From assembly GCA_964016885.1 (NCBI GenBank), contig OZ024756.1, forward strand, positions 9,052,001 to 9,116,000: a stretch of DNA of 64,000 nt, given 5' to 3'. The translations under genes and the position numbers were made by a program. Source of the DNA: Eledone cirrhosa. Its lineage: Eukaryota. Positions 4,590 through 43,393 of this stretch are shown piece after piece; position 1 is the first letter of the stretch; every line of letters begins with the position of its first letter. Under the pieces are notes generated by a model. That model worked only from the letters and a program-made list of their open reading frames with translations. It did no database searches and was not told where the DNA came from.

Positions 4590-5228
4590 AAAGATCGAAG
4601 ATGTAAGCCACATTGTTGCTTGCCAACTGCCCAAGAATGTCATCTCGCTACTACCTCCCCATGAGACACGATGGGATAGCTAGAACCATCTGGAACGCAC
4701 TTCAGAAAACAAAATTAAAAACAAACGAGGAAGAATATATTGAGACAGATGGCACTAAAGAACACTGGTGGAACCTGAAAATAAAAACTGCCACCAAATT
4801 AAAGCACAACCGGCCTGATATTGTTGTTTGGGACCACACACTGAAAACGTGCTCTGTAGTGGAGATCAGCTGCCCACTTGATGTAAACGTTGTCGGAAAA
4901 ATACAGGAGAAGGAGGACATCTACGGACCATTGATGAGGAGTTTACAAATGCAGTATCCAAGATACACCTTTAGCTTCATACCCATCATTATTGGTGCTA
5001 CGGGTTATATACCAACCCGCTTGAACCAAAGTATGACTGAACTTGGATTTGCGGACAAAGAGCGCAGCTCCCTAATTCATAGTCTACAAATAGCTGCGAT
5101 AGTTGGCACCTTCAAAATTTGCAAAACATTCTTGCGATTCAAGGGATGACAATTTCTTTTCTTTTACAACCTTGCCACCAGGAAGGTGGCCGGTCAAAAA
5201 TATACTCGAAATTAAGAGAAAGAGATAA
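4590..5228 (+). mobile_element. 3' fragment of an R4/Dong-like LINE encoding a restriction-like endonuclease
   Basis: End of a zinc knuckle (EDVSH...CPRMS), RHD, HNRPDIVVWD, VEISCP, KEDIY and PIIIGATG. Confidence 0.88.
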
Positions 5229-5993: not shown

Positions 5994-6020
5994 GTTTGCG
6001 GTTCAAGTATCTGATTGAAT

Positions 6021-8708
6021 ATGTTAAACTGGAAGCTGTTGATGTTTGTGATGTTGTTTGGCGCATCTAGTTGTGAAGATCTCATCTACACTGTCACAGA
6101 AGGAAGAAAACCAGGAACTTATATTGGAAACATAGCTTTAGATATGAATTTCATAAAGAATATCGATACTCAGAGAGTAAACTTGAGATATCTCCAACTA
6201 AAACCAGCACATTCCACTGGACACCAACAACTGTTTAAGGTTAATGAGAAAACTGGTCAATTCCATACGGCACAGGTAATTGATGCTGAGTCAGTGTGTA
6301 GACAAGGGACAGAATGTTCCCAAACGATTGATGTCATTGTTCAGGATGGAGGAACTCTGTTGAAAATATTGAAAATTAAAATTATCATTGAAGATATCAA
6401 CGATAACAAACCGACATTTCCCAGTAGAAATATCCATTTATATTTTTCTGAAGGTGGAAACGCAATAAGAAAATCAATTCCTAATGCTATCGATCGAGAT
6501 ATTAGTGAAGATAATTCTAAGATCAGTTATTATCTTCAATCAAACGTTGATGAACCATTTTCTTTGAGTGTCACAGAACGAATTGATGGAACATCGGAGT
6601 TAAGTATCAGCGTGAATGAAAAACTCAACCGTGAAGTTCGAAGTACTTATCTTTTGGAAGTTATTGCTAGAGATGGTGGACAACCGACTCAAGAAACTAT
6701 ATTGTTTGTCAATATTTCAGTGACGGATTTAAACGACAATTCACCGGTATTCACACAAAGTATATACAATGTGACAATCCAAAATGAATTAAGTGAACAG
6801 ACACCCATAATTACTGTGTCTGCAACTGATGCCGATTCAAATGATAATGGGAAAGTCTTTTATCGATTTAGTTCAAGAACATCAGAAATGGCACTTTCTC
6901 ATTTTCGACTGAACGAAACTTCGGGAGAAATATTCTTTCATCAAATATTTACTTCTAGTGAAAAAAATACATATAAATTGTTTGTTGAAGCTTATGATGG
7001 TGCCACCTCACCTTTAAGTGCCTTAGGAATGGTACAAGTTAATATCAAATATACAACGAATAACCCTCCAGAAATAAGAATTAATTTTGTGTCTTCTGTA
7101 ACGCCAAATACGGCGATTGTGACTGAGCGAATCAGCGAGGGTAGTTTTATTGCTTACGTTCAAGTTTTTGACCACGATGTAGGAAATAATGGACAGGTGA
7201 GTTGTGAATTAAAACATGATCATTTCCAACTGCAGAGTCTTGGATCAACAGACTATAAAGTTATCGTAAAGAAAAAAGTGGACAGGGAATCAAAAGACAA
7301 TTTCAATGTCACTATCACGTGTCAGGATAAAGGTAACCCACCCCTGTTCACCTATTATTCTTTCTTGATTGAAATATCAGATGTCAACGACAATCCTCCA
7401 GTGTTTGAAAAGTCTTCATATGCCACTTCATTCTTTGAAAATAATGTTATAGGTTTATCAATTGCGAAAGTGTTGGCCCACGATAAAGACAGTGATAAAA
7501 ATGCTCAAATTACTTACTTCCTTCAGTCTGATTTACCATTTAGCATTAGTAAACTGTCGGGTATGGTAAGAGCAAAAGCTTCTTTTGATCGAGAAGCGAG
7601 CTCTTTTCTAACTTTCCCCATATTCGCGAAAGATCAAGGATATCCACAACTAACAGGTAGTACTACTCTTACCGTTTCTATTCTCGATGTTAATGACATA
7701 GCACCCGAATTCTCACAACGAACTTTCGAATTTTCAACTTATGAAAACCAACAACCAAATTTTCCCGTTGGATTTATAAATGCTACAGATGCTGACCAGG
7801 GTTTAAATAGTCAGCTTACTTATTCACTGATCAGAAGCAGAGGCAATGTTCTCCCTTTTCAAATTACTAACGACGGCTTTCTATCAGTCGTTCAGGTTCT
7901 AGATCGTGAACTCCAATCAGAATATCACTTTAAAGTAATGGTCAGAGACAAAGGAACGCCTAGTTTAAACAATTCAGTGGAAGTGTGTGTAAAAGTTATC
8001 GACGAAAACGACAACATCCCGGAGTTTGTATTCCCGAGTGGAAACAATTTCAGCATGACTGTCTATTACCAACGTTATACAAATAAAGAAATCAGTGTTG
8101 TACAGGCGCATGACAACGATGTTGGCAAAAACGCTGTTCTTCGTTACAACATCATTGGAGGGAACGATAAAAAACTATTCGACATAGATAAAATTAAAGG
8201 ATCGATATATTTCGCCCGTGCTGCAACTGCACAAGACTCTGGTTTATACAAACTACATCTGGTAGTGTTTGATTCTGGCGAGCCTATGAACTCGGCTGAA
8301 TCTAATCTTTCGTTGAGCGTCATAGTTAATAATGATACGGCATTACTGCACGATGGTTTAAAACCTTATATGGGAATCACACTACAACACAATCTCCTTA
8401 TTGTTATTGTATTAACAGGTATAACCGTTTTAGTAGCTTTTATAGTCATTACCACTATTTGCGTGATTCGAAGAAACGATATTAGAAATGCCACCATCAA
8501 TACACCAGTTTCCAATAATAGTGATCGAACACAGACTTTGTCAAAACAATTTACTTTCAATTCTGATCCCACTTTAAGGGTACCAAAAGACAGTGATCGG
8601 CGAAATCGATATAATTATCCGACAGTACCAGATGATCTGGGACTTCGATGTAATACTTCAGCCATTTCTGATAATTCTAATCTGTCAACAGGAGTCAATA
8701 AAGCACAG
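6021..8708 (+). CDS. Protocadherin coding exon 1: signal peptide, 7 cadherin repeats, transmembrane helix, proximal cytoplasmic region
   Basis: ATG at 6021 (the track starts at an upstream TTG). Hydrophobic leader; EC1 C-X5-C (CRQGTEC); linkers DINDN, DLNDN, YTTNN, DVNDN, DVNDI, DENDN; DRE and AxDxD motifs; TM LLIVIVLTGITVLVAFIVITTICVI. Donor CAG|GTAAGT at 8708/8709, phase 0. Confidence 0.96.
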
Positions 8709-9243
8709 GTAAGTCTTTAATATACACCTATATATATTATAAAGATTACCAGCTAACTAACTCTTTCCTTACCTTCATCTTACCGTCCATTTTGCATTGT
8801 TTAGCCTTATATAACTTTTCACATTACATCATACTAGCAGAAAACCATCCACCCTTCGGGTGGTTTTCTGATAGCATGTGTAGTGTGTATATTGATATTA
8901 TACACAAATATACATACATATAGAGATACGATACATCAAATAAAATCGTAATTGACAATGTACACAGAAATTGAAGAGAGACTGTGTTACACTGTCTTCT
9001 GTAGCCAGTAAAGTAATCCATGATACATTTACAAAAGACGATATTATATATAAACTGCATGAGGGTGAAATGTAATGAAAACGAAAAAGGAGAAAATTAG
9101 CGACAGAAATATAAATGTTTGATATAACGATGCAAATATATGAATGTGATATAATATAGCGTCCATTATATCATAACCGGAAGTATTGACATTTGAACAT
9201 TTTTAAAGAAGTGAATGTTAAAATAAGCAATCATTATATATAG

Positions 9244-9431
9244 CGGTGGATTGGCAGTATCGGTAGAGGGTCGGACGCCATGCTTTGACGTATAGAGTTA
9301 CGGCCCTTTCCATTCTGAGTTCAAATCCCGCCGACGTTAACTTTGCCTTTCATCCTTACGGGGTCGATAAAATAAAGTACCAGTAATGTACTGGGTAATT
9401 GCTGGCCTTGTGCCTAACGTAGAAACAATTA
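9244..9431 (+). mobile_element. Full-length tRNA-derived SINE (same family as 2405-2593)
   Basis: Near-identical to 2405-2593. Confidence 0.88.
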
Positions 9432-9621
9432 TATATAGAATAATTAAGTTTAATCAACAGTTACGAAATTTAGAAGATACATTATGTAATATTCCTTATT
9501 TATTGAAAGTAATCCAACTTATTTTACTAATGGATTAAACAAATATATTGAGAACACAACCAATCCTCCATTTATTATATTATGATATTATATACATTGC
9601 TTCAAGCAAGCTACATTTTAT

Positions 9622-9750
9622 ATGTTGGTGTATGTGTTGGTATATATACATGTGTGTGTGTGTTGGTATATATACATGTGTGTGTGTGTTGGTATATATA
9701 CATGTGTGTGTGTGTTGGTATATATACATGTGTGTGTGTGTTGGTATATA

Positions 9751-9781
<31 letters not shown>

Positions 9782-10421
9782 TGGTATATATACATGTGTG
9801 TGTGTTGGTATATATACATGTGTGTGTGTTGGTATATATACATGTGTGTGTATTGGTATATATACATGTGTATGTGTTGGTATATATACATGTGTGTGTT
9901 GGTATATATACATGTGTATGTGTTGGTATATATACATGTGTGTGTGTGTTGGTATATGTACATGTGTATGTGTTGGTATATATACATGTGTGTGTGTGTT
10001 GGTATATATACATGTGTGTGTTGGTATATATACATGTGTGTGTGTGTTGGTATATATATACATGTGTATGTGTTGGTATATATACATGTGTGTGTTGGTA
10101 TATATACATGTGTATGTGTTGGTATATATACATGTGCGTGTGTGTTGGTATATATACATGTGTATGTGTTGGTATATATACATGTGTGTGTGTGTTGGTA
10201 TATATACATGTGTGTGTGTTGGTATATATACATGTGTGTGTGTGTTGGTATATATACATGTATATGTGTTGGTATATATACATGTGTATGTGTTGGTATA
10301 TACACATGTGTATGTGTTGGTATATATATACATGTGTGTGTGTGTGTTGGTATATATACATGTGTGTGTGTGTGTTGGTATATATACATGTGTGTGTGTT
10401 GGTATATATACATGTGTGTGT
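9622..10421. repeat. Minisatellite, unit about 24-30 bp (TGTTGGTATATATACA + (TG)n)
   Basis: About 30 copies; explains six overlapping low-complexity ORFs. Confidence 0.95.
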
Positions 10422-10660
10422 GCGCGCGCGCGTAATAAGGAAAATGTGAAGTTCGGTGTAGATGTTAAAGAGTCCTTTATAATAAAGCTGTGATAGATAT
10501 TTCAATGACGATCGTGGCTACGTGATCATTCAATCACGTGATCGGTCACGTGATCTCATCAGACAGCATCTATATGTAATAAGGTTACGTTTCCGAGGCA
10601 ATCAAATCTAAATACAAGGGAAATTATGTTTTCATAGCCGACATCCGTTCCCTTGTCATC

Positions 10661-10698
<38 letters not shown>

Positions 10699-10951
10699 AT
10701 AAATTAACGGAGGCATAGGCCGTCGTTATTCCCTGTAAATAATGTGCTCAAAGGGGAAGAGATCCTGAGCCCTTTAAAATATAATATGTTGAGAAGGTAA
10801 CACACACCAGAGAGAGATATATAGTGCGTTATGAATAATACAGGGAAAAAGCCACCAGTGTATGGAATCTATAACCTATGAAAGGCAGACTATAGACACG
10901 ATAATTAAAAATATAAATTAAAGCGTAAATAAATACCTCTATAACTATATA

Positions 10952-11030
10952 ACACACGTACATATCCAAAGATATGTTTCACCAGAAAATTTGTTGAAAG
11001 AAATGGTAGTCTCGTTTCATCAGCGTGTGT
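10952..11030 (-). ncRNA. Type I hammerhead ribozyme
   Basis: Minus strand: ACACACG-CUGAUGA-AACGAG...CUGGU-GAAA-CAUAUC-UUUG-GAUAUG-UA-CGUGUGU. Stem II has one mismatch relative to the plus copy. Confidence 0.75.
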
Positions 11031-11770
11031 AAGGCTATACATTTCAGACAACACTAAGAGAATTTTACAATTGACTGTCCAGCTACACGTGGGAGAGAGA
11101 AGTCACAGCGTGTTTAAGGGCAGTGAACCAGTGGCCTCTGAGAGACGAACTGCTAGAAAGGGCAGCCCAAAGCCACTCAGAGAAGAGTGCTCAACCAAAC
11201 AGAGATATGGAAAGGCTGTTGTTAGGAGCGAAATATCACGATAAATTAACGGAGGCATAGGCCGTCGTTATTCCCTGTAAATAATGTGCTCAAAGGGGAA
11301 GAGATCCTGAGCCCTTTAAAATATAATATGTATAATATCTCAGAGAGAGATATATAGTGCGTTATCAATAATACAGGGAAAAAACCACCAGTGTATGGAA
11401 TCTATAACCTATGAAAGGCAGACTATAGACACGATAATTAAAAATATAAATTAAAGCGTAAATAAATACCTCTATAACACACGTACATATCCAAAGATAT
11501 GTTTCACCAGAAAATTTGTTGAAAGAAATGGTAGTCTCGGCCTATGCCTCCGTTAATTTATCGTGATATTTCGCTCCTAACAACAGCCTTTCCTAACTCT
11601 GTTTGGTTGAGCACTCTTCTCTGAGTGGCTTTGGGCTGCCCTTTCTAGCAGTTCGTCTCTCAGAGGCCACTGGTTCACTGCCCTTAAACACGCTGTGACT
11701 TCTCTCTCCCACGTGTAGCTGGACAGTCAATTGTAAAATTCTCTTAGTGTTGTCTGAAATGTATAGCCTT

Positions 11771-11849
11771 ACACACGCTGATGAACCGAGACTACCATTT
11801 CTTTCAACAAATTTTCTGGTGAAACATATCTTTGGATATGTACGTGTGT
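11771..11849 (+). ncRNA. Type I hammerhead ribozyme, complete core
   Basis: Stem I ACACACG/CGTGTGT; CTGATGA 11778-11784; stem II ACC(G)AG/CTGGT; GAAA 11821-11824; stem III CATATC-TTTG-GATATG; GUA cleavage triplet ending at 11842. Confidence 0.85.
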
Positions 11850-12016
11850 TATATAGTTATAGAGGTATTTATTTACGCTTTAATTTATATTTTTAATTAT
11901 CGTGTCTATAGTCTGCCTTTCATAGGTTATAGATTCCATACACTGGTGGCTTTTTCCCTGTATTATTGATAACGCACTATATATCTCTCTCTGGACGTGT
12001 TACCTTCTCAACATAT

Positions 12017-12093
<77 letters not shown>

Positions 12094-12114
12094 ATGCATG
12101 TATATATATATATT

Positions 12115-12720
12115 CTAGGGCGGGTAAAATTCCTGAGATCCATGGACGAGTTCTCTCCAGCGGTCTCTGTCCCTCATTATCGCTGCCATGTTCTGCGTCT
12201 CCAACAGACCAGTGTCTGTCCTTAGGGCATCAACATACGTTAACCTTGGTCTTCTTCTTCCAGTGTGTCCATGTAGGGGCTCCCACAGGAGCACTGAGTG
12301 CAATGTCAACTCTGGATGTCGGTGAGCATGTCCAGCCAACCTCAGTCTCCTCTGTGTCACTTTTGAGCTGACTTTTGGGAGGCTCTCATACAGCTCCTCA
12401 GTGTATACTGATTAATGTTCAGAGCCATCCTCAGCATTCTCGTGTAGCACCCATCCACCATCTGAGTGAGTTTCTTGGTCAGTGTCCAAGTCTCAGACCC
12501 GTACAGCAGCACAGACTCCACTACAGCAATGAAGAGGCGGATTTTCAGGTCTTTACGAAGGTCCGACTTCCACACCGATCTCAAGCTGTGGCACGCCGCC
12601 CAGGCTTTGCTTTTCTTCTCAACCACATCATCTTCCGTATTCCAAATCTTTGCTCCCAAATACAGGAAGTCCTCAACCAATTCTAGCGGCTTCCCGCCTA
12701 CATTAGTGATCCCCTCTGGC
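12115..12720 (-). mobile_element. 3' fragment of an RTE-clade LINE
   Basis: VEDFLYLG, ESVLLYGSETWTLT, RMLRMALNI, RRLRLAGH and RDRDRWR motifs; other copies at 25489-25801 and 56515-56650. Confidence 0.88.
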
Positions 12721-12869
12721 TTGTATATGTGTGCGTTTGTGTGGGTGTATGTGTGTGTGCGTGTCATTGTAGAAACCTGACCAATGAATAGCATTGTTAG
12801 CACAAATGAACCTTAAAAATCAGGAGCCACCCCCCATCTCCCAGTGTGAACCTGTCTACAGACACTTAG

Positions 12870-13030
12870 CTTGGCTGCAAATGGGCTGAGGAGGCCAAAC
12901 TCTCCAAGTATCGGTCGCACTCCGACAGGTTTGCGGTCGTGCCCTTGGCAGTGGAGACTTCTGGTGTCCTCGGCCCTAGGGCTACCTCCCTACTCACACC
13001 ATAGGCGCTGAGCTGGCCAGCTGCAAGGCT
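12870..13030 (+). mobile_element. Fragment of a CRE-like non-LTR retrotransposon (RLE C-terminus)
   Basis: Frame from 12888 reads EEAKLSKYRSHSDRFAVVPLAVETSGVLGPRATSLL, matching the K..KY...P.AVET.G.LG pattern. Confidence 0.65.
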
Positions 13031-13034
13031 CACA

Positions 13035-15583
13035 CTTGCTTGTGTGTTATATGTGGCCCTAGATGTATGTATTACCTGCTTGTGTGTTGTATGTGGTCCT
13101 ATATGTGTGTATTACCTGCTTGTGTGTTATATGTGGCCCTAGATGTATGTATTACCTGCTTGTGTGTTGTATGTGGTCCTATATGTGTGTATTACCTGCT
13201 GGTGTGTTGTATGTGGTCCTGGATGTATATATTACCTGCTGGTGTGTTGTATGTGGCCCTAGATGTATGTATTACCTGCTGGTGTGTTGTATGTGGTCCT
13301 AGATGTATGTATTACCTGCTGGTGTGTTGTATGTGGTCCTAGATGTATGTATTACCTGCTGGTGTGTTGTATGTGGTCCTAGATGTATGTATTACCTGCT
13401 GGTGTGTTGTATGTGGTTCTAGATGTGTGTATTACCTGCTGGTGTGTTGTATGTGGTTCTAGATGTGTGTATTACCTGCTTGTGTGTTGTATGTGGTCCT
13501 AGATGTGTGTATAACCTGCTGGTGTGTTGTATGTGGTCCTAGATGTGTGTATTACCTGCTGGTGTGTTGTATGTGGTCCTAGATGTATGTATTACCTGCT
13601 GGTGTGTTGTATGTGGTCCTAGATGTATGTATTACCTGCTGGTGTGTTGTATGTGGTCCTAGATGTATGTATTACCTGCTGGTGTGTTGTATGTGGTCCT
13701 AGATGTATGTATTACCTGCTGGTGTGTTGTATGTGGTTCTAGATGTGTGTATTACCTGCTGGTGTGTTGTATGTGGTTCTAGATGTGTGTATTACCTGCT
13801 TGTGTGTTGTATTTGGTCCTAGATGTGTGTATAACCTGCTGGTGTGTTGTATGTGGTCCTAGATGTGTGTATTACCTGCTGGTGTGTTGTATGTGGTTCT
13901 AGATGTGTGTATTACCTGCTGGTGTGTTGTATGTGGTTCTAGATGTATGTATTACCTGCTGGTGTGTTGTATGTGGTCCTAGATGTATGTATTACCTGCT
14001 TGTGTGTTGTATGTGGTCCTAGATGTATGTATTACCTGCTGGTGTGTTGTATGTGGTCCTAGATGTATGTATTACCTGCTGGTGTGTTGTATGTGTTCCT
14101 CCTAGATGTGTGTATTACCTGCTGGTGTGTTGTATGTGGTCCTAGATGTATGTATTACCTGCTGGTGTGTTGTATGTGTTCCTCCTAGATGTGTGTATTA
14201 CCTGCTTGTGTGTTGTATGTGATCCTAGATGTATGTATTACCTGCTGGTGTGTTGTATGTGTTCCTCCTAGATGTGTGTATTACCTGCTTGTGTGTTGTA
14301 TGTGGTCCTAGATGTATGTATTACCTGCTGGTGTGTTGTATGTGTTCCTCCTAGATGTGTGTATTACCTGCTTGTGTGTTGTATGTGATCCTAGATGTAT
14401 GTATTACCTGCTGGTGTGTTGTATGTGGTCCTAGATGTGTGTATTACCTGCTGGTGTGTTGTATGTGATCCTAGATGTATGTATTACCTGCTGGTGTGTT
14501 GTATGTGGTCCTAGATGTGTGTATTACCTGCTGGTGTGTTGTATGTGGTCCTAGATGTGTGTATTACCTGCTGGTGTGTTGTATGTCGTTCTAGATGTGT
14601 GTATTACCTGCTGGTGTGTTGTATGTGGTCCTAGATGTATGTATTACCGTCTTGTGTGTTGTATGTGGTCCTAGATGTGTGTATTACCTGCTGGTCTGTT
14701 GTATGTGGTCCTAGATGTATGTATTACCTTCTGGTGTGTTGTATGTGGTCCTAGATGTATGTATTAACTGCTTGTGTGTTGTATGTGGTCCTAGATGTAT
14801 GTATTACCGGCTTGTGTGTTGTATGTGGTCCTAGATGTATGTATTACCTGCTTGTGTGTTGTATGTGGTCCTAGATGTATGTATTACCGGCTTGTGTGTT
14901 GTATGTGGTTCTAGATGTGTGTATTACCTGCTGGAGTGTTGTATGTGGTCCTAGATGTGTGTATTACCTGCTTGTGTGTTGTATGTGGTCCTAGATGTGT
15001 GTATTACCTGCTGGTGTGTTGTATGTGGTTCTAGATGTGTGTATTACCTGCTGGTGTGTTGTATGTGGTCTTAGATGTATGTATTACCTGCTGGTGTGTT
15101 GTATGTGATCCTAGATGTGTGTATTACCTGCTGGTGTGTTGTATGTGATCCTAGATGTGTGTATTACCTGCTGGTGTGTTGTATGTGGTTCTAGATGTGT
15201 GTATTACCTGCTGCTGTGCTGTATGTGGTCCTAGATGTGTGTATTACCAGCTTGTGTGTTGTATGTGGTCCTAGATGTATGTATTACCTGCTGGTGTGTT
15301 GTATGTGGTCCTAGATGTTTGTATTAGCTGCTGGTGTGTTGTATGTGATCCTAGATGTGTGTATTACCTGCTGGTGTGTTGTATGTGGTCCTAGATGTAT
15401 GTATTACCTGCTGGTGTGTTGTATGTGATCCTAGATGTGTGTATTACCTGCTGTTGTGTTGTATGTGGTCCTAGATGTATGTATTACCTGCTGGTGTGTT
15501 GTGTGTGTTGTATGTGTTCCTAGATGTGTGTATTACCTGTTTGTGTGTTGTATATGGTCCTAGATGTGTGTATTACCTGCTTG
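13035..15583. repeat. 40-bp tandem satellite (GTGTGTTGTATGTGGTCCTAGATGTATGTATTACCTGCTG), about 63 copies
   Basis: Direct reading. Confidence 0.97.
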
Positions 15584-16153
15584 TTTTCTTTTTTCTTTCT
15601 TTATTTTTTTCTTTCTGTTTGTAATATTATGTTGACGATTACGCCTTAATAAAAAGAATAATAAAACTATTTATATGGTGAAAAAAACAATGGCGGAGTC
15701 GTTAGAACGTCAGATAGAATGCTTTGCGGTATTCATTTCGGCTTTCAGCTCTCTGAGTCCAAATCCCGCCGAAGTCAACTGTGCCTTTCATCCATTCGAG
15801 GATAATAAAAAAAAAAACTACCAGTCTAATACTGGGGTCGATTCTTCCTCTGTATCTCTTTCTCATTTCTAGTCTCCCTCATTTTCTAATCTTCTCTGGA
15901 AGAAATCTTCTGTGTACAGACCTGGAGAGGGATGGGCTCCGCCAGGTTTTGAGATGTTCAAGAAACGCCGTATGTCAATATGGCTGTCCCTACGACTCCA
16001 TTACGACTGACAGAGCCGGACCAAACCTCATCGTAAACAGTCAGATAGCCATTATCAGAATGTTTACGATGCAAGGGAAGTAACTCAGAAGAAACCCAAA
16101 TATCTAAAATTCGTTTTCTTTCTCAGTTTCTCAGTCTTCAGAAATACTTTCAA

Positions 16154-16516
16154 ATAATTGTTTCTACGTTAGGCACAAGGCCAGCAATTATCCAGTGCAT
16201 TACTGATACTTTATTTATCGACCCCGTAAGGATGAAAGGCAAAGTCAACCTCGGCGGGATTTGAACTCAGATCGTAAAGGGACGTAACTATGCTGGAAAG
16301 CATGGCGTCCGACCCTCCACCGATACTGCCAAATAATTGTTTCTAATTTAGGCACAAGGCCAGCAAATTACCCAGTGCATTACTGGTACTTTATTTTATC
16401 GACCCCGTAAGGATGAAAGGCAAAGTCAACCTCGGCGGGATTTGAACTCAGATCGTAAAGGGACGTAACTATGCTGGAAAGCATGGCGTCCAACCTTCTA
16501 CCGATACTGCCAATCC
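16154..16516 (-). mobile_element. Two head-to-tail SINE copies (family of 2405-2593)
   Basis: 16154-16331 and 16333-16516 are near-identical to each other. Confidence 0.88.
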
Positions 16517-17009
16517 ATGCCTTTAAAAACCTTTTTTAATAATAAAATTTATAGAAATTATAAATTCATTCTTTTCAGGAAGAATATTAAAGAAAATTTT
16601 ATTGAAATTTTTTATTAATTTAAATTTTTTTAAGAGCCAGAAAGCATTTTCTTTTTTTTTACATGTTTTTATTGTCATAAACTGTCAAATTAACCAGAGG
16701 TTCTCAAATTGGGTGCTACTCCTCCCCCTCGGGGGTGCGGGGGTGGGGGTAGAGATGATATAATAGTATATTAAATATCAAATTATATATATTATATATA
16801 AATATAGTTTAAAATATAAAATATATAATATTTATTTATACATAGTATATATTATATTATTTATTATATATAAATTAACGATTTTATTTATTATATATTA
16901 TTTACAATTTGTACCAGTCTAATACTGGGGGAGAGTTCTCATCCATATCTCTTTCTTTCTTCCTCCTCCCTATTATTCTCTCTCTCTCTCCTTCTCTCTA
17001 CCTCTCTGT

Positions 17010-17072
<63 letters not shown>

Positions 17073-17473
17073 TCTCTCTTACTCTCTCTCTCTCACTATA
17101 TTTCTCTCTTACTCTCTATTGTTCTCTCTCTCTCCTCCTGCCCCTTTCCTCTCTATTGTTCCCTCTTTCTCTCACCCTATCTGGAAGAAACCATCATAAT
17201 CATGCTCATCCTCTACACATTACAGGGGATGTTTGCACCAGCACTACCGCATGACAGGGGTGCTTTTGTAGTGGCGCCAGCACTACCACATAACAACACC
17301 CTGGCACTTAGTGTCAGTAAAAGATATTTCACTATAGAAACCTATGAAAATCACTTCTTTTATTCCTTCTGATAAAATGGAAGACAGACTTTATATTTCT
17401 GACTTCAGTTGATATATTTTGAAAGAATATAGTCTTTGTCAGGTTGGCTTGCTTATAACACACATATACGCAC

Positions 17474-18030
17474 ACACCACACCACAGCACACCACACCAC
17501 ACCACACCATACTACACCACACTACACTACACCACACCACACCACACTACACTACACTACACTACACTACACTACACCACACCACACCACACCACACCAC
17601 ACCACACCACACCACACCACACCACACCACACTACACTACACTACACTACACCACACCACACCATACTACACCACACTACACCACACTACACCACACCAC
17701 ACCATATTACACTACACCACACCACACCACACCACACCACACCACACCACACCACACCACACCACACCACACTACACTACACTACACCACACCACACCAT
17801 ACTACACCACACTACACCACACTACACCACACCACACCATATTACACTACACCACACCACACCACACCACACCACACCACACCACACCACTCCACACCAC
17901 ACCACACCACTCCACACCACACTACACCGCACCACACCACACCACACTACACCACACTATACCACACTACACCACACTACACTACACCACACTACGCCAC
18001 ACCACATCACACCACACTACACCACACCAC
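17474..18030. repeat. (CACAC/CACTA)n pentanucleotide array
   Basis: Direct reading; source of the His/Thr ORFs. Confidence 0.95.
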
Positions 18031-18376
18031 ACACACACCACACATATACATACATACACACCACTCACACCACACACCACTCACACACACATATACATAC
18101 ATACACATACATACACACATATACATATAAAGAAGTTCATTTTCAACTATAAAACCTGTAAAGGTGTAGGTGAAAGAGTTATATCAGCTCAAAATACTGG
18201 AATTTATTATTAAAAAACTGTCCACAAATGTAACCAAAAATCTACGGAATTGTTGTCCATTTGAAAAGATGAACTTGTTGAGGTAATTATTTATTAAATG
18301 ATTGATTTTGATGAGACCCACAAGGATGAAACTATTGTAAGTCAAATTATGATGTGAATAAGTGTTTGGTAAGATA

Positions 18377-18487
<111 letters not shown>

Positions 18488-18533
18488 GAAATGACAGAAG
18501 GCTGGATTTGTGTAAATCCTTGAAAGGTTTATT

Positions 18534-18594
18534 ATACTATGATCATTTCAATGACCGGGTTCCGTATGAATCCGGTGATATCATCATCAGGTAT
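18534..18594 (-). ncRNA. Minimal type I hammerhead-like motif in a short element between two (AT)n tracts
   Basis: Minus strand: AUAC-CUGAUGA-[UGAUAUCACCGG...CCGGUCAUU]-GAAA-UGAUCA-UA-GUAU, with palindromic stem III. Confidence 0.6.
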
Positions 18595-18661
18595 TCGAAA
18601 TATAATACGGTTGACCATACGGAATTGTCCAGCTCTATCCAGTGGTGAACCTCAAACCTGA

Positions 18662-18726
<65 letters not shown>

Positions 18727-19075
18727 TAAAGTTAGTCCTTCATCAGTGATCTTCCAACCATCATTGGTATTTCATCGCTTTAAAGACCATATACCTCCGG
18801 TTGGTGCGAGCATCCACCACCACCACCATACTGACACCATTCACCACCACCACCACCACCACCACCATTACTAGCGTAAAGCAAACAATTATTATTTGAC
18901 TTTGCCTTTCATCCTTACGGGGTCGATGGAATAAAGTACCAGTAATACACTGGTTAGTTGCTGGCCTTGTGCCTAGGGTGGAAACAATTATTATTATTAT
19001 ATATAAAAACTGAACTGGACTGGGAAAAGTCAACAGTTGACATGATTTTGATTTTGTATCAGTACTGCCGGTAAT

Positions 19076-19410
19076 CATCATCTTCATTTTACATCCGCTT
19101 TTTCCCTGCTTGCAAGGGTGGGACGGGAACTGATTCTGGCTTGATTTCTACAGCTGGATGCCCTTCCTAACACCAACCTCATTTAGAGTGAGTGCTGGGT
19201 GCTTTTTTGCCGTGGCACCTCCACGACCACTTTGCAGTGGAATGATAGGGACCCCAGTCCCTATCATCTCATTTCTACAGCTGAGTAAACTGGAGCAATG
19301 TGAAATAAAGTGTCTTGCTCAAGGAAACAACACATCACCCGGTCTGAGAATTGAACTCACAACCTTTCGATTGCAAGTCCAATGCTCTAACCACTAAGCC
19401 ATGTGCCTCC
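19076..19410 (-). mobile_element. tRNA-derived SINE with V-domain-like core and bipartite RTE-derived 3' half
   Basis: Head GGAGGCACATGGCTTAGTGGTTAGAGC...GAGTTCAATTC; core TCCTTGAGCAAGACACTT; segments matching the 5'UTR and 3' tail of the neighbouring RTE. Confidence 0.85.
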
Positions 19411-19549
19411 ATATATATATGTGTGTGTTTGTATGCATGAATGAGTGTTGGTATGTGAGTAGCGTGTGTGTTTGTGGTTTGTATGCATGAGTCTTGGTGT
19501 GTGAGTGTGTGTGTGTGTCGTGTCAATAAGTGTTTTTTTTTTGTTTTAA

Positions 19550-22500
19550 TGACCATGTTGTAAAAGGGAGAGGCAGAGAGGGCCCTTGAGTCTAGTAAGA
19601 CAACCTCTCTAGTGCTGGTGGCACAAATAAAAGCACCCAGTCCATGCTGTAAAGTGGCGCTGGTGTTAGGAAGGGCATCCAACCAGTGTATCAATGCCAA
19701 AACGCTTATCAGCACAGCAACAAATAGGAACAACAACAAAATATGAAGACATCGCATCTCAGAGTTGCAACACTTAATGTTGGCACTCTCAGAAGTAGAT
19801 CTGCTGAAATAGCGGAGATGCTGGAGAGAAGGCATGTGGATGTGTGCTGCGTGCAAGAGGTGAGATAGAGAGGTGCCTCTGCGAGACTAGTCGTAGGCAA
19901 ACGTCTTAGCTATAAGCTATTCTGGGTTAGGGGGAGTAGGCATTTTCCTGGCTGAGAAATGGATCAATAAGACAATAGAGGTAGTTCAAGTTAGTAACCG
20001 AATAATTAAGCTTAGATTAGTTGTAGGCAGGAGACTACTGACAATCATCTCTGCCTATGCTCCCCAAGCAGGCCTAGGCAAAGATGAGAAAGACTGCTTT
20101 TACGAGCAACTGTTACAAACAACCGCAATGACAGAGGACGGAGACATCGTTATGCTAGCAGGAGACTTCAATGGTCATGTTGGACAGCTCCAGGATGATT
20201 ACACTGGGGTACATGGTGGGCACGGTTATGGCTCAAGAAAGTAAGAAGGAGTGAGACTTCTTGAATTTTGTGATGCAGGTACATTGACTATTTGCAACAC
20301 AAACTTCCAGAAACCTGCCAATCACCTAATAACCTACAAATCTGGTGAGCACATAAGCCAGATTGACTTCTTACTAGTGAGGCAGCGGGACAGGCAGATA
20401 GTGTCTAATACCAAGGCATACCCTGGGGAAGAATGTACCCCACAGCATAGGTTAGTCGTTAGTGATATCTCAGTAAGCAAGAGATGGAATGAGACATACA
20501 GGAAGGTGTGGAGAAGAAAGGTCTGGAAGCTAAAAGACCTTTCACTAACATAGAAATTTACGAAAGCCTTTCAAGATGTGTATGACAAAAAAGAAGACGA
20601 TTTAGAGACGTATGACATAGATAATAACTGGAATTTCTTACGTGACAACTTGCTGCAGGCTACTGATGAAACTTGTGGCTGGAGCAGAGCTCCAACCACA
20701 CAGAGAGTGACCTGGTTGTGGAACAGCACAGTAGATAAGGCCATTAGATTCAAAAGACTAGCATGGAAGGCTTGGAAAAAGGGTGGGAGTAGGGAAGAAT
20801 ATACAGCCACTAAGAGAGAAGCTAGATGGCAGGTGTACTTAGCACGCAGGGAGGCGGAGAGTAGGAGGTTTGCCAATATTCTGCGACGGGAAGATCAGAG
20901 GCGTGCGGTGTTCCACATTGCAAGGCAGTGTGTCAATGCAAATCAGGATGTTGTTGGTGATAAATGTGTCCGGGTGTCACGAATGATCAGACAAAGGAGG
21001 CCTGGAAATGTCATTATGAGAGACTGATGAATGTGGAGAACGAATGGGAGAGAGAGAAACTACCCTTAGTAGATCCGACAGAGGGACCAGCTATTGAGAT
21101 TGACGAATATAGGGTCCAAGAGGCGATTAAGGAAATGAAAAATGGTAAGGCTGCTGAACCATAGGGAATAGTTGCTGAGATGCTGAAGGCATCAGGGGAC
21201 GTAGGCACTAAACTGGTTGCACGCATCATCAATCAGGCTATATATGGTGGTGTCATACCAAAGGACTGGTGCAGCAGTATTCTCATAAATTGCTACAAAG
21301 GTAAAGGGGATCCTCTGGAGAGGAGCAATTATAGGGGTATAAAACTGATGGATCAAGTTATGAAAGTGGCAGAAAGGATATTAGCACAACTATTTAGAGA
21401 AAGGGTCAAACTAGATGAGATGCAGTTTGGTTTTGTGCCTGGGAAGAGTACAACAGATGCCCTCTTCTTGGTGAGACAATTGCAAGAGAGGTTCTTAGAG
21501 AAAAATAAGCCACTATACTTAGCCTTTGTTGACCTAGAGAAGGCCTTTGATAGGGTACCCCGATCTGTCATCTGGTGGTCCCTAAGGAAGCTAGGTGTTG
21601 AGGAATGGCTTGTGAGGACAGTGCAAACTTTGTACAGAGGTACTCTCAGAAAAGTCAGGGTAGGAATGGAGTTTAGTGAGGAATTCCAGATACAAGTAGG
21701 AGTACATCAAGGTTCAGTCCTCAGCCCGCTCTTGTTCATTATAGTCCTCCAAGCCATAACAGAGGAGTTTAAGACTGGCTGTCCATGGGAACTTCTCTAG
21801 GCTGACGATCTGGTTCTTATAGCAGAATCAGTAGAGGAGCTAGAGAATAAATTCTGGCTATGGAAACAGCAGTTGGAAGCAAGAGGACTGAGAGTGAACC
21901 TAGCTAAGACAAAAGTGTTGATGAGTAGAAAAGAGGACAAAACTCTGATTCCGTCAGGGAAATGGCCATGTTCGATATGCAGAAAAGGAACTGGCATAAA
22001 TTCTATAAAATGCACACAATGCAGATCCTGGGTACACAAGAGATGTAGCGGGATAGCAGGCAAACTAACAGGTAGGGAGAAATATGTATGCAGTAGATGT
22101 ACAGGGAAATTAGACAGTAGAAGTCGCATTAATAGACACATTTTTCAAATGCAGGAGGGCGCTATAGAAGTGGTGGATAGCTTCCGGTACCTAGGAGATC
22201 AGATTAGCATGGGAGGAGGGTATTCCGAGGCCATAGTATCTAGAATAAGGACAGGTTGGAAGAAGTTTAGGGAGCTGCTTCCTCTGCTGACGAAGAAGGG
22301 TTTCTCCCTGCGTACGAAAGGCCGGTTGTATGATGCCTGTGTGAGGAGCGCAATGCTGCATGGTAGTGAGACATGGGCAGCAACTGCAGAGGATATGCGA
22401 CGGCTGGAGAGAAATGAGGCAAGCATGCTCCGTTGGATGTGCAGTGTCAATGTGCGTGAACGACCCAGCATAAATGTGTTGAGAGAGAAACTGTGTCTGA

Positions 22501-22793
22501 GAGGGATAGAATGTAGTGTACGGGAGAGGAGACTGAGGTGGTATGGACATGTGATGCGCATAGAGGATGACCGATGGGTGAAGAAGTGCCAGAAAATGCC
22601 AGTTTAAGGAAGACGTGGTAGAGGTAGACCACAAAAAACATGGGCGGAGGTGGTGAGAACAGACCTCAGATCGCTGAAGCTCCTGGTGGAGATGACGGAG
22701 GACCATGACAAGTGGAGAGATGCTGTGCTGAATAAGACCTGTCCCACCCTTGCAAGCAGGGAAAAGCGGACGTAAAATGATGATGATGATGAT
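19550..22793 (+). mobile_element. Near full-length RTE-clade LINE (APE endonuclease, RT, PHD-type zinc finger), inactivated
   Basis: ATG about 19743 gives MKTSHLRVATLNVGTL...VCCVQEVR; AGDFNGHVG, SQIDFLLV, NYRGIKL, AFVDLEKAFDRV, GVHQGSVLSPLLF. YADD is mutated to stop-ADD at 21798-21800. (ATG)n tail; several stops and frameshifts. Confidence 0.95.
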
Positions 22794-22823
22794 ATATATA
22801 TACACATACATATATATATATGA

Positions 22824-22864
<41 letters not shown>

Positions 22865-22992
22865 TGTGTATAGGTATATACATATTTATACATATACATA
22901 TATACATATTGCAAGTAGGGAAAAGCGGACGTAAAATGATGATGATATATATATATATATATATATATATTATACATATACATATATATCAT

Positions 22993-23318
22993 TCATTTTA
23001 CGTCCGCTTTTCCCTGCTTGCAAGGGTGGGACGGGAACTGACTCTGGCTTGATTTCTACAGCTGGATGCCCTTCCTAACACCAACCTCATTTACAATGAG
23101 TGCTGGGTGCTTTTTTGCCGTGGCGCCTACACGTCCACTTTGCAGTGGAATGATAGGGAACCCAGTCCCTATCATCTCATTTCTACAGCTGAGTAAACTG
23201 GAGCAATGTGAAATAAAGTGTCTTGCTCAAGGAAACAACACATCACCCGGTCTGAGAATTGAACTCACAACCTTTCGATTGCAAGGCCAATGCTCTAACC
23301 ACTAAGCCATGTGCCTCC
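22993..23318 (-). mobile_element. Second copy of the bipartite RTE-partner SINE
   Basis: Near-identical to 19086-19410. Confidence 0.88.
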
Positions 23319-23321
23319 ACT

Positions 23322-23376
<55 letters not shown>

Positions 23377-23393
23377 TACATACATACATACAT

Positions 23394-23470
<77 letters not shown>

Positions 23471-23474
23471 TGTA

Positions 23475-23521
<47 letters not shown>

Positions 23522-23627
23522 GAGGTGAGTTTTATTGTAGTACGATATCGGATAAGTAGCACTCTACAGTTTGTAGGACTGGAGTATAAATAATATAAGA
23601 TCAAAAGATGGTTAAAAGAGTTCCATC

Positions 23628-23698
23628 TATTTTATTATGCGCATTTCAAAAACAAATATCATCGTGAGATGACATTTGTGTTTTCGTCAGATAAAATA
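23628..23698 (-). ncRNA. Type I hammerhead motif with palindromic stem III
   Basis: Minus strand: UAUUUUAU-CUGACGA-AAAC-ACAAAUGUCAUC-UCAC-GAUGAUAUUUGU-UUUU-GAAA-UGCGCA-UA-AUAAAAUA. Confidence 0.75.
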
Positions 23699-24043
23699 GG
23701 GATACATGATATGAAGGTTAAAAAACACTTGTGAATAGTGAAGTTTTAAATCAACATATGAAAAGTAGTTTAAGATTGATGTGTGATATTGGGAAAAAAA
23801 TGAGGGGGGTGGGGTGGAAAGGGTGAAAAAGAGGAGGAGATGAGAGAATGGTGGCGGAGGAGTATATTCCTTATTATACTCCTCTGCCACCATTCTTTAC
23901 TCTCATCTCCTCCTCTTTTTCCCCCTCCCCCCCCCCTCTCATTTTTTTCCCAATATCACACATCAATCTTAAACTACTTTTCATATGTTGATTTAAAACT
24001 TCACTATTCACAAGTGTTTTTTAACCTTCATATCATGTATCCC

Positions 24044-24114
24044 TATTTCATCTGACGAAAACGCAAATGTCATCTCATGATGATATTTGTTTTTGAAATG
24101 CGCATAATAAAATA
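24044..24114 (+). ncRNA. Type I hammerhead motif with palindromic stem III
   Basis: CTGACGA 24052-24058, long stem II, GAAA 24095-24098, TGCGCA, TA; stem I TATTTCAT/ATAAAATA has one mismatch. Confidence 0.7.
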
Positions 24115-24144
24115 GATGGAACTCTTTTAACCATCTTTTGATTT

Positions 24145-24190
<46 letters not shown>

Positions 24191-24234
24191 AAACATTAAA
24201 ATCTAAAAAGACAAAAATGCCCGTATATTTGTAG

Positions 24235-24367
24235 GTAACGTTCCAGAATGTAGTTGCTGCTCCAAATAGATCAGTACATGACTGTATGAGTGTTGTTTCG
24301 ACTGGTTCATCAAACACTGACAGTGGCCGAGGATGGAGTGATGCTGGAACTGTGCAAGAACTGCAGA
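24235..24367 (+). CDS. Protocadherin coding exon 2 (cytoplasmic)
   Basis: Acceptor TTTGTAG (24234) or in-frame TTCCAG (24246); reads VTFQNVVAAPNRSVHDCMSVVSTGSSNTDSGRGWSDAGTVQELQ; donor A|GTAAGC. Phase 0 in and phase 1 out exactly bridge exons 1 and 3. DSGRG resembles the delta-protocadherin cytoplasmic motif. Confidence 0.85.
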
Positions 24368-24713
24368 GTAAGCAACTTTCTCTGACATCGGCACCATTAA
24401 TTCTCTCATCTCTTTCAAATAGACTTTTATAACAAACAGCTGATAACCATAATGAATAGCATGTAATAATTAATAGAATTACAGTCAATTAATGGATTTA
24501 CAGTCAGATTTTAATGGTCTTACAGTAATAATTAATAGATTTACAGTCAATTAATGAATTTGCAGTCAATTAATAGACTTACAGTCAGATTTTAATGGTC
24601 TTACAGTAATAATTAATAGATTTACAGTCAATTAATGAATTTGAAGTCAATTAATAGACTTACAGTCAGATTTTAATGGTCTTACAGTAATAATTAATGG
24701 ATTTAGTCAGATT

Positions 24714-26659: not shown

Positions 26660-29600
26660 AGATCTGAGTAATATTGATCTGTGTAATATTGATCTGTGAC
26701 AAATATTAAAGGGAGAGATCTGTGTAATATTGATCTGTGACATATATTAAAGGGAGAGATCTGTGTAATACTGATCTGTGACAAATATTAAAGGGAGAGA
26801 TCAGTGTGATACTGATCTGTGAAATATTGATGTGAGTAATATTGATCTGTGTAATATTGATCTATGACAAATATTAAAGGGAGTGGTCTGTGTAATATTG
26901 ATCTGTGACAAATATTAAAGGAAGTGATCTGTGTAATATTGATCTGTGACAAATATTAAAGGGAGAGATCTGTGTAATACTGATCTGTGACAAATATTAA
27001 AGGGAGTGATCTATGTAATATTGATCTGTGACAAATATTAAAGGGAGTGATCTATGTAATATTGATCTGTGACAAATATTAAAGTGAATGATCTGTGTAA
27101 TACTGATCTGTGACAAATATTAAAGGGAGTGATCTCTGTAATATTGATCTGTGACAAATATTAAAGGGAGTGGTCTGTGTAATATTGATCTGTGACAAAT
27201 ATTAAAGGGAGTGATCTGTGTAATATTGATCTGTGACAAATATTAAAGGGAGAGATCTGTGTAATATTGATCTGTGACAAATATTAAAGGGAGAGATCTG
27301 TGTAATATTGACCAGTGACAAATATTAAAGGGAGAGATCTGTGTAATACTGATCTGTGACAAATATTAAAGGGAGAGATCTGTGTAATACTGATCTGTGA
27401 CATATATTAAAGGGAGAGATCTGTGTAATACTGATCTGTGACAAATATTAAAGGGAGAGATCTGTGTAATACTGATCTGTGACAAATATTAAAGGGAGAG
27501 ATCTGTGTAATATTGATCTGTGACAAATATTAAAGGGAGTGATCTATGTAATATTGATCTGTGACAAATATTAAAGGAAGGGATCTATGTAATACTGATC
27601 TGTGACAAATATTAAAGGGAGTGATGTGTATAATATTGATCTGTGACAAATATTAAAGGGAGAGATCTGTGTAATATTGATCTGTGACAAATATTAAAGG
27701 GAGAGATCTGTGTAATATTGATCTGTGACAAATATTAAAGGGAGAGATCTGTGTAATATTGATCTGTGACAAATATTAAAGGGAGTGGTCTGTGTAATAT
27801 TGATCTGTGACAAATATTAAACGGAGGGATCTATGTAATACTGATCTGTGACAAATATTAAAGGGAGAGATCTGTGACAAATATTAAAGGGAGTGGTCTG
27901 TGTAATATTGATCTGTGACAAATATTAAAAGGAGGGATCTATGTAATACTGATCTGTGACAAATATTAAAGGGAGTGATCTGTGTAATACTGATCTGTGA
28001 CAAATATTAAAGGGAGAGATCTGTGTAATATTGATCTGTGACATATATTAAAGGGAGAGATCTGTGTAATACTGATCTGTGACAAATATTAAAGGGAGAG
28101 ATCTGTGTAATATTGTTCTGTGACAAATATTAAAGGGAGAGATCTGTGTAATATTGATCTGTGACAAATATTAAAGGGAGTGATCTGTGAAATATTGATC
28201 TGTGACAAATATTAAAGGGAGTGATCTGTGTAATATTGATCTGTGACAAATATTAAAGGGAGTGATCTGTGTTATACTGATCTGTAACAAATATTAAAGG
28301 GAGAGATCTGTGTAATATTGATGTGACAATATTAAAGTGAGTGATCTGTGACAATATTAAAGGGAGAGATCTGTGTAATATTGATCTGTGACAAATATTA
28401 AAGGGAGAGATCTGTGTAATACTGATCTGTAACAAATATTAAAGGGAGAGATCTGTGTAATATTGATGTGTGACAAATATTAAAGGGAGTGATCTGTGTT
28501 ATACTGATCTGTAACAAATATTAAAGGGAGAGATCTGTGTAATATTGATGTGTGACAAATATTAAAGGGAGTGATCTGTGTAATACTGATCTGTGACACA
28601 TATTAAAGGGAGTGATCTGTGTAATATTGATGTGTGACAAATATTAAAGGTAGTGATCTGTGTAATATTGATCTGTGACACATATTAAAGGGAGAGATCT
28701 GTGTAATATTGATGTGTGACAAATATTAAAGGGAGTGATCTGTGTAATACTGATCTGTGACACATATTAAAGGGAGAGATCTGTGTAATATTGATGTGTG
28801 ACAAATATTAAAGGTAGTGATCTGTGTAATATTGATCTGTGACACATATTAAAGGGAGTGATCTGTGTAATATTGATGTGTGACAAATATTAAAGGTAGT
28901 GATCTGTGTAATATTGATCTGTGACAAATATTAAAGGGAGTGATCTATGTAATATTGATGTGTGACAAATATTAAAGGGAGTGATCTGTGTAATACTGAT
29001 CTGTGACAAATATTAAAGGGAGTGATCTATTTAATATTGATCTGTGACATATATTAAAGGAAGGGATCTGTGTAATACTGATCTGTGACAAATATTAAAG
29101 GGAGTGATCTGTGTAATACTGATCTGTGACAAATATTAAAGGGAGTGATCTGTGCAATAGTGATCTGTGACAAATATTAAAGGGAGAGATCTGTGTAATA
29201 TTGATCTGTGACAAATATTAAGGGAGAGATCTGTGTAATACTGATCTGTGACAAATATTAAAGTGAGAGATCTGTGTAATACTGATCTGTGACATATATT
29301 AAAGGGAGAGATCTGTGTAATATTGATCTGTGACAAATATTAAAGGGAGTGATCTCTGTAATATTGATCTGTCACAAACATTAAAGTTAATGATCTGTGT
29401 AATACTGATCTGTGACAAATATTAAAGGGAGTGATCTGTGTAATATTGATCTGTGACATATATTAAAGGGAGAGATCTGTGTAATATTGATCTGTGACAA
29501 ATATTAAAGGGAGTGATCTGTGTAATATTGATCTGTGACAAATATTAAAGGGAGAGATCTGTGTAATATTGATGTGTGACAAATATTAAAGGGTGAGATC

Positions 29601-35220: not shown

Positions 35221-35372
35221 AAATTTGATGCTGTGATGTTATGTGCAATGTTAGGAGTCGTAGAGTAAGAAATTTTAATGGTATTTCTATTAAAAATTTT
35301 ACTATGTTTATGTGCTGGGGGGAAATGCTTCATAATAAAGGAGAGAAAGTTCTTAGCTAATGGTGTGACCAA
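35221..35372 (-). mobile_element. Penelope-like element ORF fragment
   Basis: KNFLSFIMKHFPPAHKHSKIFNRNTIKISYS matches the post-RT region of Penelope-like ORFs; a homologous motif occurs at about 41050-41145. Confidence 0.75.
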
Positions 35373-36324: not shown

Positions 36325-36481
36325 GTATATATATATATATATATATATATCATTATACATTATTCTATTTAGTAAAATAAAATATATTCTTTTTTTTATG
36401 AAATATAATTACAAATGAAAATTATAATTACAAATTATGAATATCATTTAACAAAATATAATTTGTTTGTTTTATTTTCAG

Positions 36482-37005
36482 GTATGGCTGAAAACCTCGC
36501 CTCATCATCACAGTGTACAATACCATTACTGAATTACCATCAGAAAAGCAATACGGCTCCAGTCTCACAACCATCTAAAGAAAATGGTTTCAAACCAAAC
36601 CAAAGGAGTTCCTTTAAACCAAATACTTCATCTCAACATTCTCCCATGAATAATTTAAGATCTAATCATCCCTCCCCATTAATAAATTCCAAAATGCAAC
36701 AAGAAAACATATATGAACAACTCCCTGACTCTACCTCACATCGAGTTCAACCTACTACACCTTACTCCCTTGTGGCTATTCCCCTTGCTACAATTCCAAA
36801 CAAACAACATTATCCATTTGTACAGTCACAATTAATGACAAAACAACAAGTGGTAAGTTGTGTAGCTAATTTATCTCAAGCTGACTGCTCCCTTTATGAA
36901 AATCAAAGCTCTTCTTCAACTGATAGCTGTCATCTATTAGATGGAATTAAAAGGCATACATTTGGTGATCACAGTCAATTCATATTAAAAGATGTTATAG
37001 TATGA
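36482..37005 (+). CDS. Protocadherin terminal coding exon 3
   Basis: Acceptor TTTTATTTTCAG at 36481, phase 1 (A+GT = Ser). Ser/Pro/Gln/Asn-rich tail with ENIYEQL, ending KDVIV-stop. The joined CDS is 3345 nt (1114 aa). Confidence 0.82.
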
Positions 37006-42549: not shown

Positions 42550-43128
42550 AGTTATTAGATGCAAAATTTTTGGAATGTTTTACATATTTTTACTGTTCCA
42601 TTAATGGATTGTACTTGTAATTTCCTAACTAGTTGTGTTCTTTCTGTTCCTGTGAAGCCTAGCTTCTCAAGATTTGTATTGAGGCGGTTACTAACATACC
42701 CCAGTGCCCCAATAATCACAGGCATAAATCTGAAGGTGTAATCAGGGTGGAGTATCTGCAGATTTCTCATCAGTTCTGCATAAATATTCTCCTTTTCACT
42801 AATCTTTGATATTATATTGGCATCTGCTGGGCCTCTAATTTCCACTACTGTGCATGCTTTCTTCTCCCTGTCCCATATCATAATATCTGGTTGGTTGTGC
42901 CTGCATTTTATTGGGGTTTTTACTGGAACATTCCACCAGTACTCTTTCATATTATGTACATGGATGTCTTCCACATTGCTGTAGCTTTTAATGTGTTTAT
43001 TACTGGGGCTATCTTTTTTACGAACTGCATTGAACAGTGTTTTGGCCACTACATCATGCCTCATAGGTAGATAGTACAGCAATGACATCTTTGGACAGAT
43101 GCTGATGACATGGCTGATATCTTCGATG
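42550..43128 (-). mobile_element. 3' fragment of an R4/Dong-like LINE (restriction-like endonuclease)
   Basis: RHDVVAK, HNQPDIMIWD, VVEI, KENIY and PVIIGALG; paralogous to 4590-5228. Confidence 0.88.
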
Positions 43129-43393
43129 TATGTATGTATGTAAAATTGGTTGTTTTGAAAGCCTCAACAATGCAGATGGGTAAATCTCCGGGTAACAGAA
43201 TCAGGTCGTAATGAGAGAGATGTAAGAGGAAATGTAGAATGAGATATATAGGGTGTAGAGGAACGTAGGAAAGTGTGTAAAAATAATAACACGAGATAGA
43301 GTTAACTTGGAAGTGATTTAATTATCCCTATATTTTGGATTTTGCATCCATCAACTGGGGGTTTTCCGAGGGGGAAAGATTTTAGTCGGAGAG

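Follow-up and report, generated by a model that had tools for sequence, protein, structure and literature searches.

Structure of the locus

The window analysed here, i.e. the whole stretch of 64,000 nt, harbors a protocadherin gene on the plus strand. Exon 1 of this gene ends at 8708 and is followed by GT, and the next exon begins near 24235 and is preceded by AG. The encoded protocadherin shares 79% identity with its Octopus vulgaris orthologue and 75% with that of Argonauta, which identifies the host as an octopod. Both a cephalopod host and a location in protocadherin intron 1 had been proposed in a previous annotation made from the letters of the window (hereafter, the sequence-only reading), and the orthologues support the two proposals, as the element lies about 2 kb inside the 15.5-kb first coding intron. 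The features that define the locus are the following:

6015-8720, plus strand: protocadherin ORF
near 6021-8708, 24235-24369 and 36481-37005, plus strand: protocadherin exons, from orthologue mapping, with canonical splice sites
8709..24234, plus strand: first coding intron of protocadherin, 15,526 nt
10487..10567, minus strand: second hammerhead-like motif, left of the (TA)n tract, with an AUC site and a predicted cut after 10492
10664..10694: left (TA)n target tract
10691..11232, minus strand: copy 1 (c1), a full 542-nt monomer whose 3' end enters (AT)n
11030 to 10952, minus strand: defective hammerhead of c1, predicted cut after 10959
11233..11540, minus strand: copy 2 (c2), 308 nt, 5'-truncated, upstream of c1 in the ribozyme sense
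11538..11540: 3-nt overlap, the microhomology joining the 5' ends of c2 and c3
11538..12021, plus strand: copy 3 (c3), inverted, 484 nt
11771..11849, plus strand: intact type I hammerhead motif in c3, with stems of 7/4/7 bp
12013..12093: right (AT)n tract (12013-12041), then (TG)n

Repeat comparison within the window resolves the interval 10691-12021 into three copies of a single 542-nt unit, not all of them complete, with no further copies elsewhere in the window. The starts of the direct copies are 542 nt apart (10691 versus 11233), and on the ribozyme strand c2 leads head-to-tail into c1, from 11540 to 11233 and then from 11232 to 10691. The inverted arm, with 406 nt that are 99% complementary, starts with the last 32 nt of the preceding unit, crosses the unit junction and has its 3' end in (AT)n. 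Relative to the cut site, the outer ends are found 268 nt and, for c3, 179 nt past it, a difference of 89 nt. This mapping bears out the description of a non-coding 542-bp unit arranged head-to-tail and then in reverse between (AT)n tracts. The accompanying statement that the copies are nearly identical holds for c1 and c3, which over 486 aligned columns differ by 5 substitutions and 2 gap positions. It fails for c1 and c2, with 6 substitutions and 17 gap positions over 325 columns, c2 being a distinct variant.

The monomer is predicted to be highly structured, both as a linear molecule (z of -4.6, with none of 100 shuffles as stable) and as a circular one (z of -3.9, none of 40 shuffles), and in the circular fold stems I and III stay formed. 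Regarding coding potential, no Pfam family was detected in the three unit frames scanned, and every ORF within the element is shorter than 150 aa. A protein search with the 65-aa unit frame found no longer homologue. The sole match of the 99-aa frame, a repetitive 2,000-aa protein whose score sums weak stretches, was discarded as spurious. Neither the unit nor the sequence beside the element at this locus contains an RT or GIY-YIG ORF; the locus is not an autonomous Penelope element.

The motif at 10487-10567 has a stem I of 5 bp, a long stem II with one mismatch and a stem III of 2-3 bp, and no match arose when the flank was shuffled 20,000 times. An apparent likeness of the left flank to the 3' end of the unit was rejected, as no significant alignment was obtained (53 of 500 and 283 of 500 shuffles scored equally well). 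A different Penelope-type element that used the same (AT)n tract has probably left this motif behind, in which case the tract was hit twice.

Several other repeats populate the window. A third match to the relaxed hammerhead descriptor, on the minus strand (23636-23699, at 23690), is doubtful, with AT-rich stems and a zero-length loop III. A tRNA-like match on the minus strand (19344-19401, 34.8 bits) is probably the head of a tRNA-derived SINE, and the tandem dimers of a 169-181 nt repeat at 226-554 and 16144-16513 presumably represent an octopus SINE. LINE fragments occur at 12357-12812 (minus), 20554-22607 (plus) and 54234-55033 (plus), with RVT_1 matches at 21165-21797 and 54234-54686, and by eye none of the LINE fragments in the window resembles a Penelope ORF. 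Two related frames without Pfam match, at 4607-5149 (plus) and 42555-43163 (minus), are taken by us to resemble C-terminal restriction-like endonuclease domains of non-LTR retrotransposons. In addition, long minisatellite arrays are found in or near the protocadherin introns at 26675-35224 (41 nt), 13037-15581 (40 nt), 44214-47299 (21 nt) and 9628-10422 (24-26 nt).

The hammerhead and its sequence family

The hammerhead of c3 comprises CUGAUGA at 11778, GAAA at 11821 and a GUA site, with the cut predicted after 11842. Its stem III consists of 7 Watson-Crick base pairs, or 8 if a U.G pair in the loop is counted, and stem I is extended by TATAGC/GTTATA (11762-11767 with 11856-11861), a pairing that is present in the predicted fold. 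A scan of both strands of the window with a hammerhead descriptor returned this motif as the single match; among 20,000 composition-matched random 542-mers, a strict descriptor gave no match and a loose one gave 1. The complete type I hammerhead previously attributed to the unit is thus found as described in c3, but not in the other two copies: c1 carries an A.G mismatch at position 2 of stem II (window position 11015) and fails the descriptor, and c2 begins inside stem II and lacks CUGAUGA. Rfam models did not recover the motif, since no hammerhead reached the gathering score in the window, nor did the 30 matches obtained for 10600-12100 at E<=10 include one, a miss perhaps due to the length of loop II and helix III. 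The Rfam miRNA matches correspond to (AT)n hairpins and were rejected.

When the c3 hammerhead is folded alone, stems I and III form with probabilities of 0.89 and 0.97, respectively, whereas stem II does so with a probability of only 0.03, and the active fold costs 2.1 kcal/mol relative to the minimum. Because of these two values, self-cleavage is predicted to be plausible but not assured. Stem II opens with an A-U pair, at the position where PMC4209133 describes a conserved G-C.

Part of the window is present in 9 of 13 public sequencing runs, none of which is recorded as RNA, hence they have no bearing on expression. The family was surveyed in four of the 13 (X1, X4, X6 and X11), with c1 as reference and 85% likeness. 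X1 yielded 1,634 contigs ranging from 85 to 100% identity (399 at 99% or more, 573 at 95-99%, 452 at 90-95% and 210 under 90%), X4 and X6 yielded 4 contigs each, and in X11 the family accounts for 2,339 of 12,467,656 raw RAD reads, i.e. 188 reads per million. The counts from X1 and X11 substantiate a multi-copy family that is large and diverged. As a rough estimate, a genome of several gigabases would contain on the order of a thousand copies, bearing in mind that RAD sampling is biased and that summed contig depth does not equal copy number. Five sites in X11 at which many molecules start or end, all of them AATT sites, reflect RAD digestion and were not taken as RNA ends.

The head-to-tail junction was found in at least 7 variant rows of X1, in at least 1 of X4, in one joint of X6 that goes back 542 nt and in 310 loose-ended reads of X11. 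The same junction therefore recurs in runs from three organisms, diverged variants included, which argues for the 542-nt unit as a true monomer rather than a one-off truncation. Among the 15 loose ends listed out of 229, inspection by eye assigned 13 to diverged family sequence, one to AT-rich sequence and one to low agreement.

Concerning the ribozyme itself, the stem II mismatch of c1 is nearly private to this copy, the pairing base being present in 205 of 226 X11 reads. Variants read by eye comprise a change at core position 7, a stem II G.U turned into A-U and, for 84 of 189 X11 reads, a C at 11.1; the pair-keeping changes seen in this way are one-sided. As far as can be read by eye, these variants appear to respect the ribozyme, with a change at a free core position, a stem II change that keeps the pair and a C at 11.1. 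The stem III base differs from the window, where the pair is U-A, in 333 of 346 X11 reads; with the common variant the pair becomes U.U in an X4 contig and, for one subfamily, probably G.U. Among the 40 variant rows listed out of 118, none falls in the catalytic core, against about 1 expected by chance, which is not significant. No exact match to the family motif was obtained in metagenome contigs. A gapped hammerhead pattern matched one viral and two metagenome sequences, which were dismissed as chance matches, being GC-rich, devoid of helix III and unlike the unit.

Origin of the insertion

Animal non-LTR retrozymes are described as tandem repeats of 150-450 bp with type I hammerheads, with circRNA reported in coral, mussel and axolotl, and Penelope-like elements have been proposed as their helpers (PMC7229834). 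The unit resembles them as a non-coding, head-to-tail, multi-copy sequence with one type I hammerhead each, a structured monomer and a GC content under 50% (here 39%), and a mollusc precedent of 350-390 bp exists in mussel. Its 542 nt exceed the original range, but lie inside the consensus lengths of 51-972 bp given by a 2026 survey (bioRxiv 10.64898/2026.07.22.740005). It departs from metazoan retrozymes in its helix III of 7 bp, usually of 1-2 bp, in the A-U at the base of stem II, in the inverted arm and in having only one intact ribozyme at the locus. Membership in the non-LTR retrozymes is likely, though not complete. According to the same preprint, about 43% of Xenopus retrozyme copies are intronic, many families have pLTR homology, and of nine Xenopus retrozyme dimers in vitro one was cleaved and eight were not; by the definition of "active" that its text gives, the present locus does not qualify.

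The layout of the locus recalls a different group. Penelope-like insertions are reported to form partial tandems, in many cases next to an inverted copy with a truncated 5' end, and (TA)n to be a preferred target of the Naiad clade (PMC8557442, PMC8969392). A purified Penelope-like protein cuts AT-rich DNA in vitro, extends both strands and starts internally, using mainly uncleaved RNA (PMC11167929), and 31 recently active Penelope-like families have been described in Octopus vulgaris (PMC13282606). The insertion shares with these elements the partial tandem with its adjacent inverted 5'-truncated copy, the (TA)n target, the hammerhead and internal priming. It differs from them in the lack of an RT or GIY-YIG ORF in or beside the unit, in a junction that is fixed family-wide, in outer ends that differ by 89 nt where the usual tail is of 30-40 nt, and in a helix III of 7 bp where the hammerheads of metazoan pLTRs tend to be minimal and to have hardly any helix III. 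In this last regard the motif is closer to the hammerheads of fungal and protist Penelope-like elements described in PMC4209133, which are type I, have a long helix III and are expected to work as monomers; those, however, reside in endonuclease-deficient telomeric elements, whereas the present one is intronic and from an animal. With the plant LTR retrozymes of PMC7229834 the unit has in common being a non-autonomous ribozyme retroelement, but type III hammerheads, LTRs, PBS/PPT and 4-bp target duplications characterize the plant elements, in contrast to the type I tandem units found here.

Taken together, the layout and the (TA)n target support the Penelope/retrozyme affinity that had been suggested. 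The novelty ascribed to the tandem-plus-inverted arrangement on (TA)n was, on the other hand, overstated, as PMC8557442 describes it as the standard Penelope-like footprint. The alternative between retrozyme and pLTR posed in the sequence-only reading is also largely a false one, animal retrozymes having been proposed to be non-autonomous elements that derive from pLTRs (bioRxiv 10.64898/2026.07.22.740005). We consider it probable that the insertion is a 542-nt non-coding hammerhead repeat, a non-autonomous retroelement of the non-LTR retrozyme type, copied in trans by the RT and endonuclease of a Penelope-like element. The insertion would have arisen from a master locus at which two slightly different units stood in tandem and were transcribed as a multimer. 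A Penelope protein would then cut the (AT)n tract and cDNA would be primed from both target ends, resulting in two arms with their 3' ends outward, whose truncated 5' ends would be joined through a microhomology of 3 nt (11538-11540). At other loci with intact arrays, cleavage of multimers by the hammerhead would release monomers of about 540 nt, and these may be circularised.

The nature of the template bears on the classical retrozyme model, in which one circular monomer of about 540 nt undergoes rolling-circle reverse transcription. The fixed unit length and junction, the compact circular fold that keeps stems I and III and the agreement with the published model (PMC7229834) all speak for it. 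One circle, however, should yield identical tandem copies, and c1 and c2 differ by the substitutions and gaps given above. Moreover, c1 and c3 share states that are rare in the family, at 10851 (340 of 351 X11 reads differ) and at 11186 (490 of 536 differ). At 10851, c2 instead shows the common family state, and it has deletions of its own. A single circular template could still be reconciled with these differences by gene conversion of c2 at a later time or by template switching; nevertheless, we regard this origin as unlikely. Since c2 differs from c1 and c3 shares the rare states of c1, uncleaved multimeric RNA is the likelier template, and both arms likely derive, judging from these states, from one master with two different units in its transcript. 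At about 1.4% between arms, the insertion would be young, roughly 2 million years on the scale given for Octopus vulgaris (0.09 per 25 million years; PMC13282606).

A further reading, that the unit is a mere pseudo-LTR of an autonomous Penelope-like element, of which a tandem and inverted insertion with heavy 5' truncation is left, and that no separate non-autonomous family exists, seems to us rather improbable. Random 5' truncation would be expected to produce variable junctions, yet the same junction occurs twice in the locus (from c2 to c1, and within c3) and again in the diverged variants of the three organisms. In addition, the unit frames lack a coding homologue, and 13 of the 15 loose ends listed are diverged family sequence by eye, although an ORF-linked parent could be among the other 214. 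This reading gains from a geometry that is exactly that of autonomous Penelope-like insertions and from PMC4209133, which places Penelope-like hammerheads mostly in truncated copies. As for an inversion or tandem misassembled between two microsatellites, the region is repeat-rich and the inversion joint of the locus is absent among the 6 joints listed (the runs surveyed need not contain the locus), but the three copies are distinguishable variants, their junction shows a clean 3-nt overlap and the layout is that of a known biological footprint, so that such an artefact is very improbable.

The element in the protocadherin pre-mRNA

In the protocadherin pre-mRNA, the antisense c1 and c2 precede the sense c3, and a duplex of c3 with about 480 nt of this antisense sequence is predicted. 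Folding of 10691-11865 gave a minimum free energy of -738 kcal/mol, with a probability of 0.0 for all three hammerhead stems, and every sampled hammerhead position pairs with c1. The drop in stems I and III from their values in isolation supports, in silico, the proposal that the upstream antisense arm could sequester the sense hammerhead. Production of a circular RNA, which had also been suggested, is not supported for this locus, where no strand carries two intact hammerheads; given the stem II mismatch of c1 and the absence of CUGAUGA from c2, no monomer release is expected. For lack of a strand with two intact ribozymes, and with the sense copy predicted to be duplexed, the element at this locus is likely a dead passenger, and an effect on protocadherin is unlikely.

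Had the insertion been co-opted, the intronic ribozyme would cut the protocadherin pre-mRNA once A-to-I editing or helicases open the duplex. Such co-option appears highly doubtful, even though the sole intact motif is sense to the pre-mRNA and editing in cephalopods is reported as frequent in intronic repeats (PMC9068888). The insertion is young, the predicted duplex is very stable, with no probability left for the stems, and editing would presumably hit core adenosines too. A particular form of this idea has, as a whole, very little likelihood: a hammerhead with a long helix III, competent as a monomer, would have been brought into the protocadherin intron by an octopod retrozyme, be held inactive by the antisense arm, and be released for cleavage of the pre-mRNA when the 480-bp duplex undergoes neural A-to-I editing. 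If true, an editing-gated hammerhead would link a retroelement, RNA editing and protocadherin output.

In the mostly open-access literature searched on retrozymes and hammerheads in octopus, mollusc and cephalopod, an octopod family of this type is not described. The unit could already be included in the family tables of the 2026 preprint or in the octopus entries of Repbase/Dfam, and for the giant squid genome a count of 235 Rfam hammerhead matches is reported (PMC6962438).

Our findings would extend the animal retrozymes to octopods, with a long helix III that is atypical for animals. The occurrence of a retrozyme-type unit with a Penelope insertion footprint supports the proposed dependence of these elements on Penelope, and the c2-c1 heterodimer suggests that the template of this insertion was an uncleaved multimer and not a circle.
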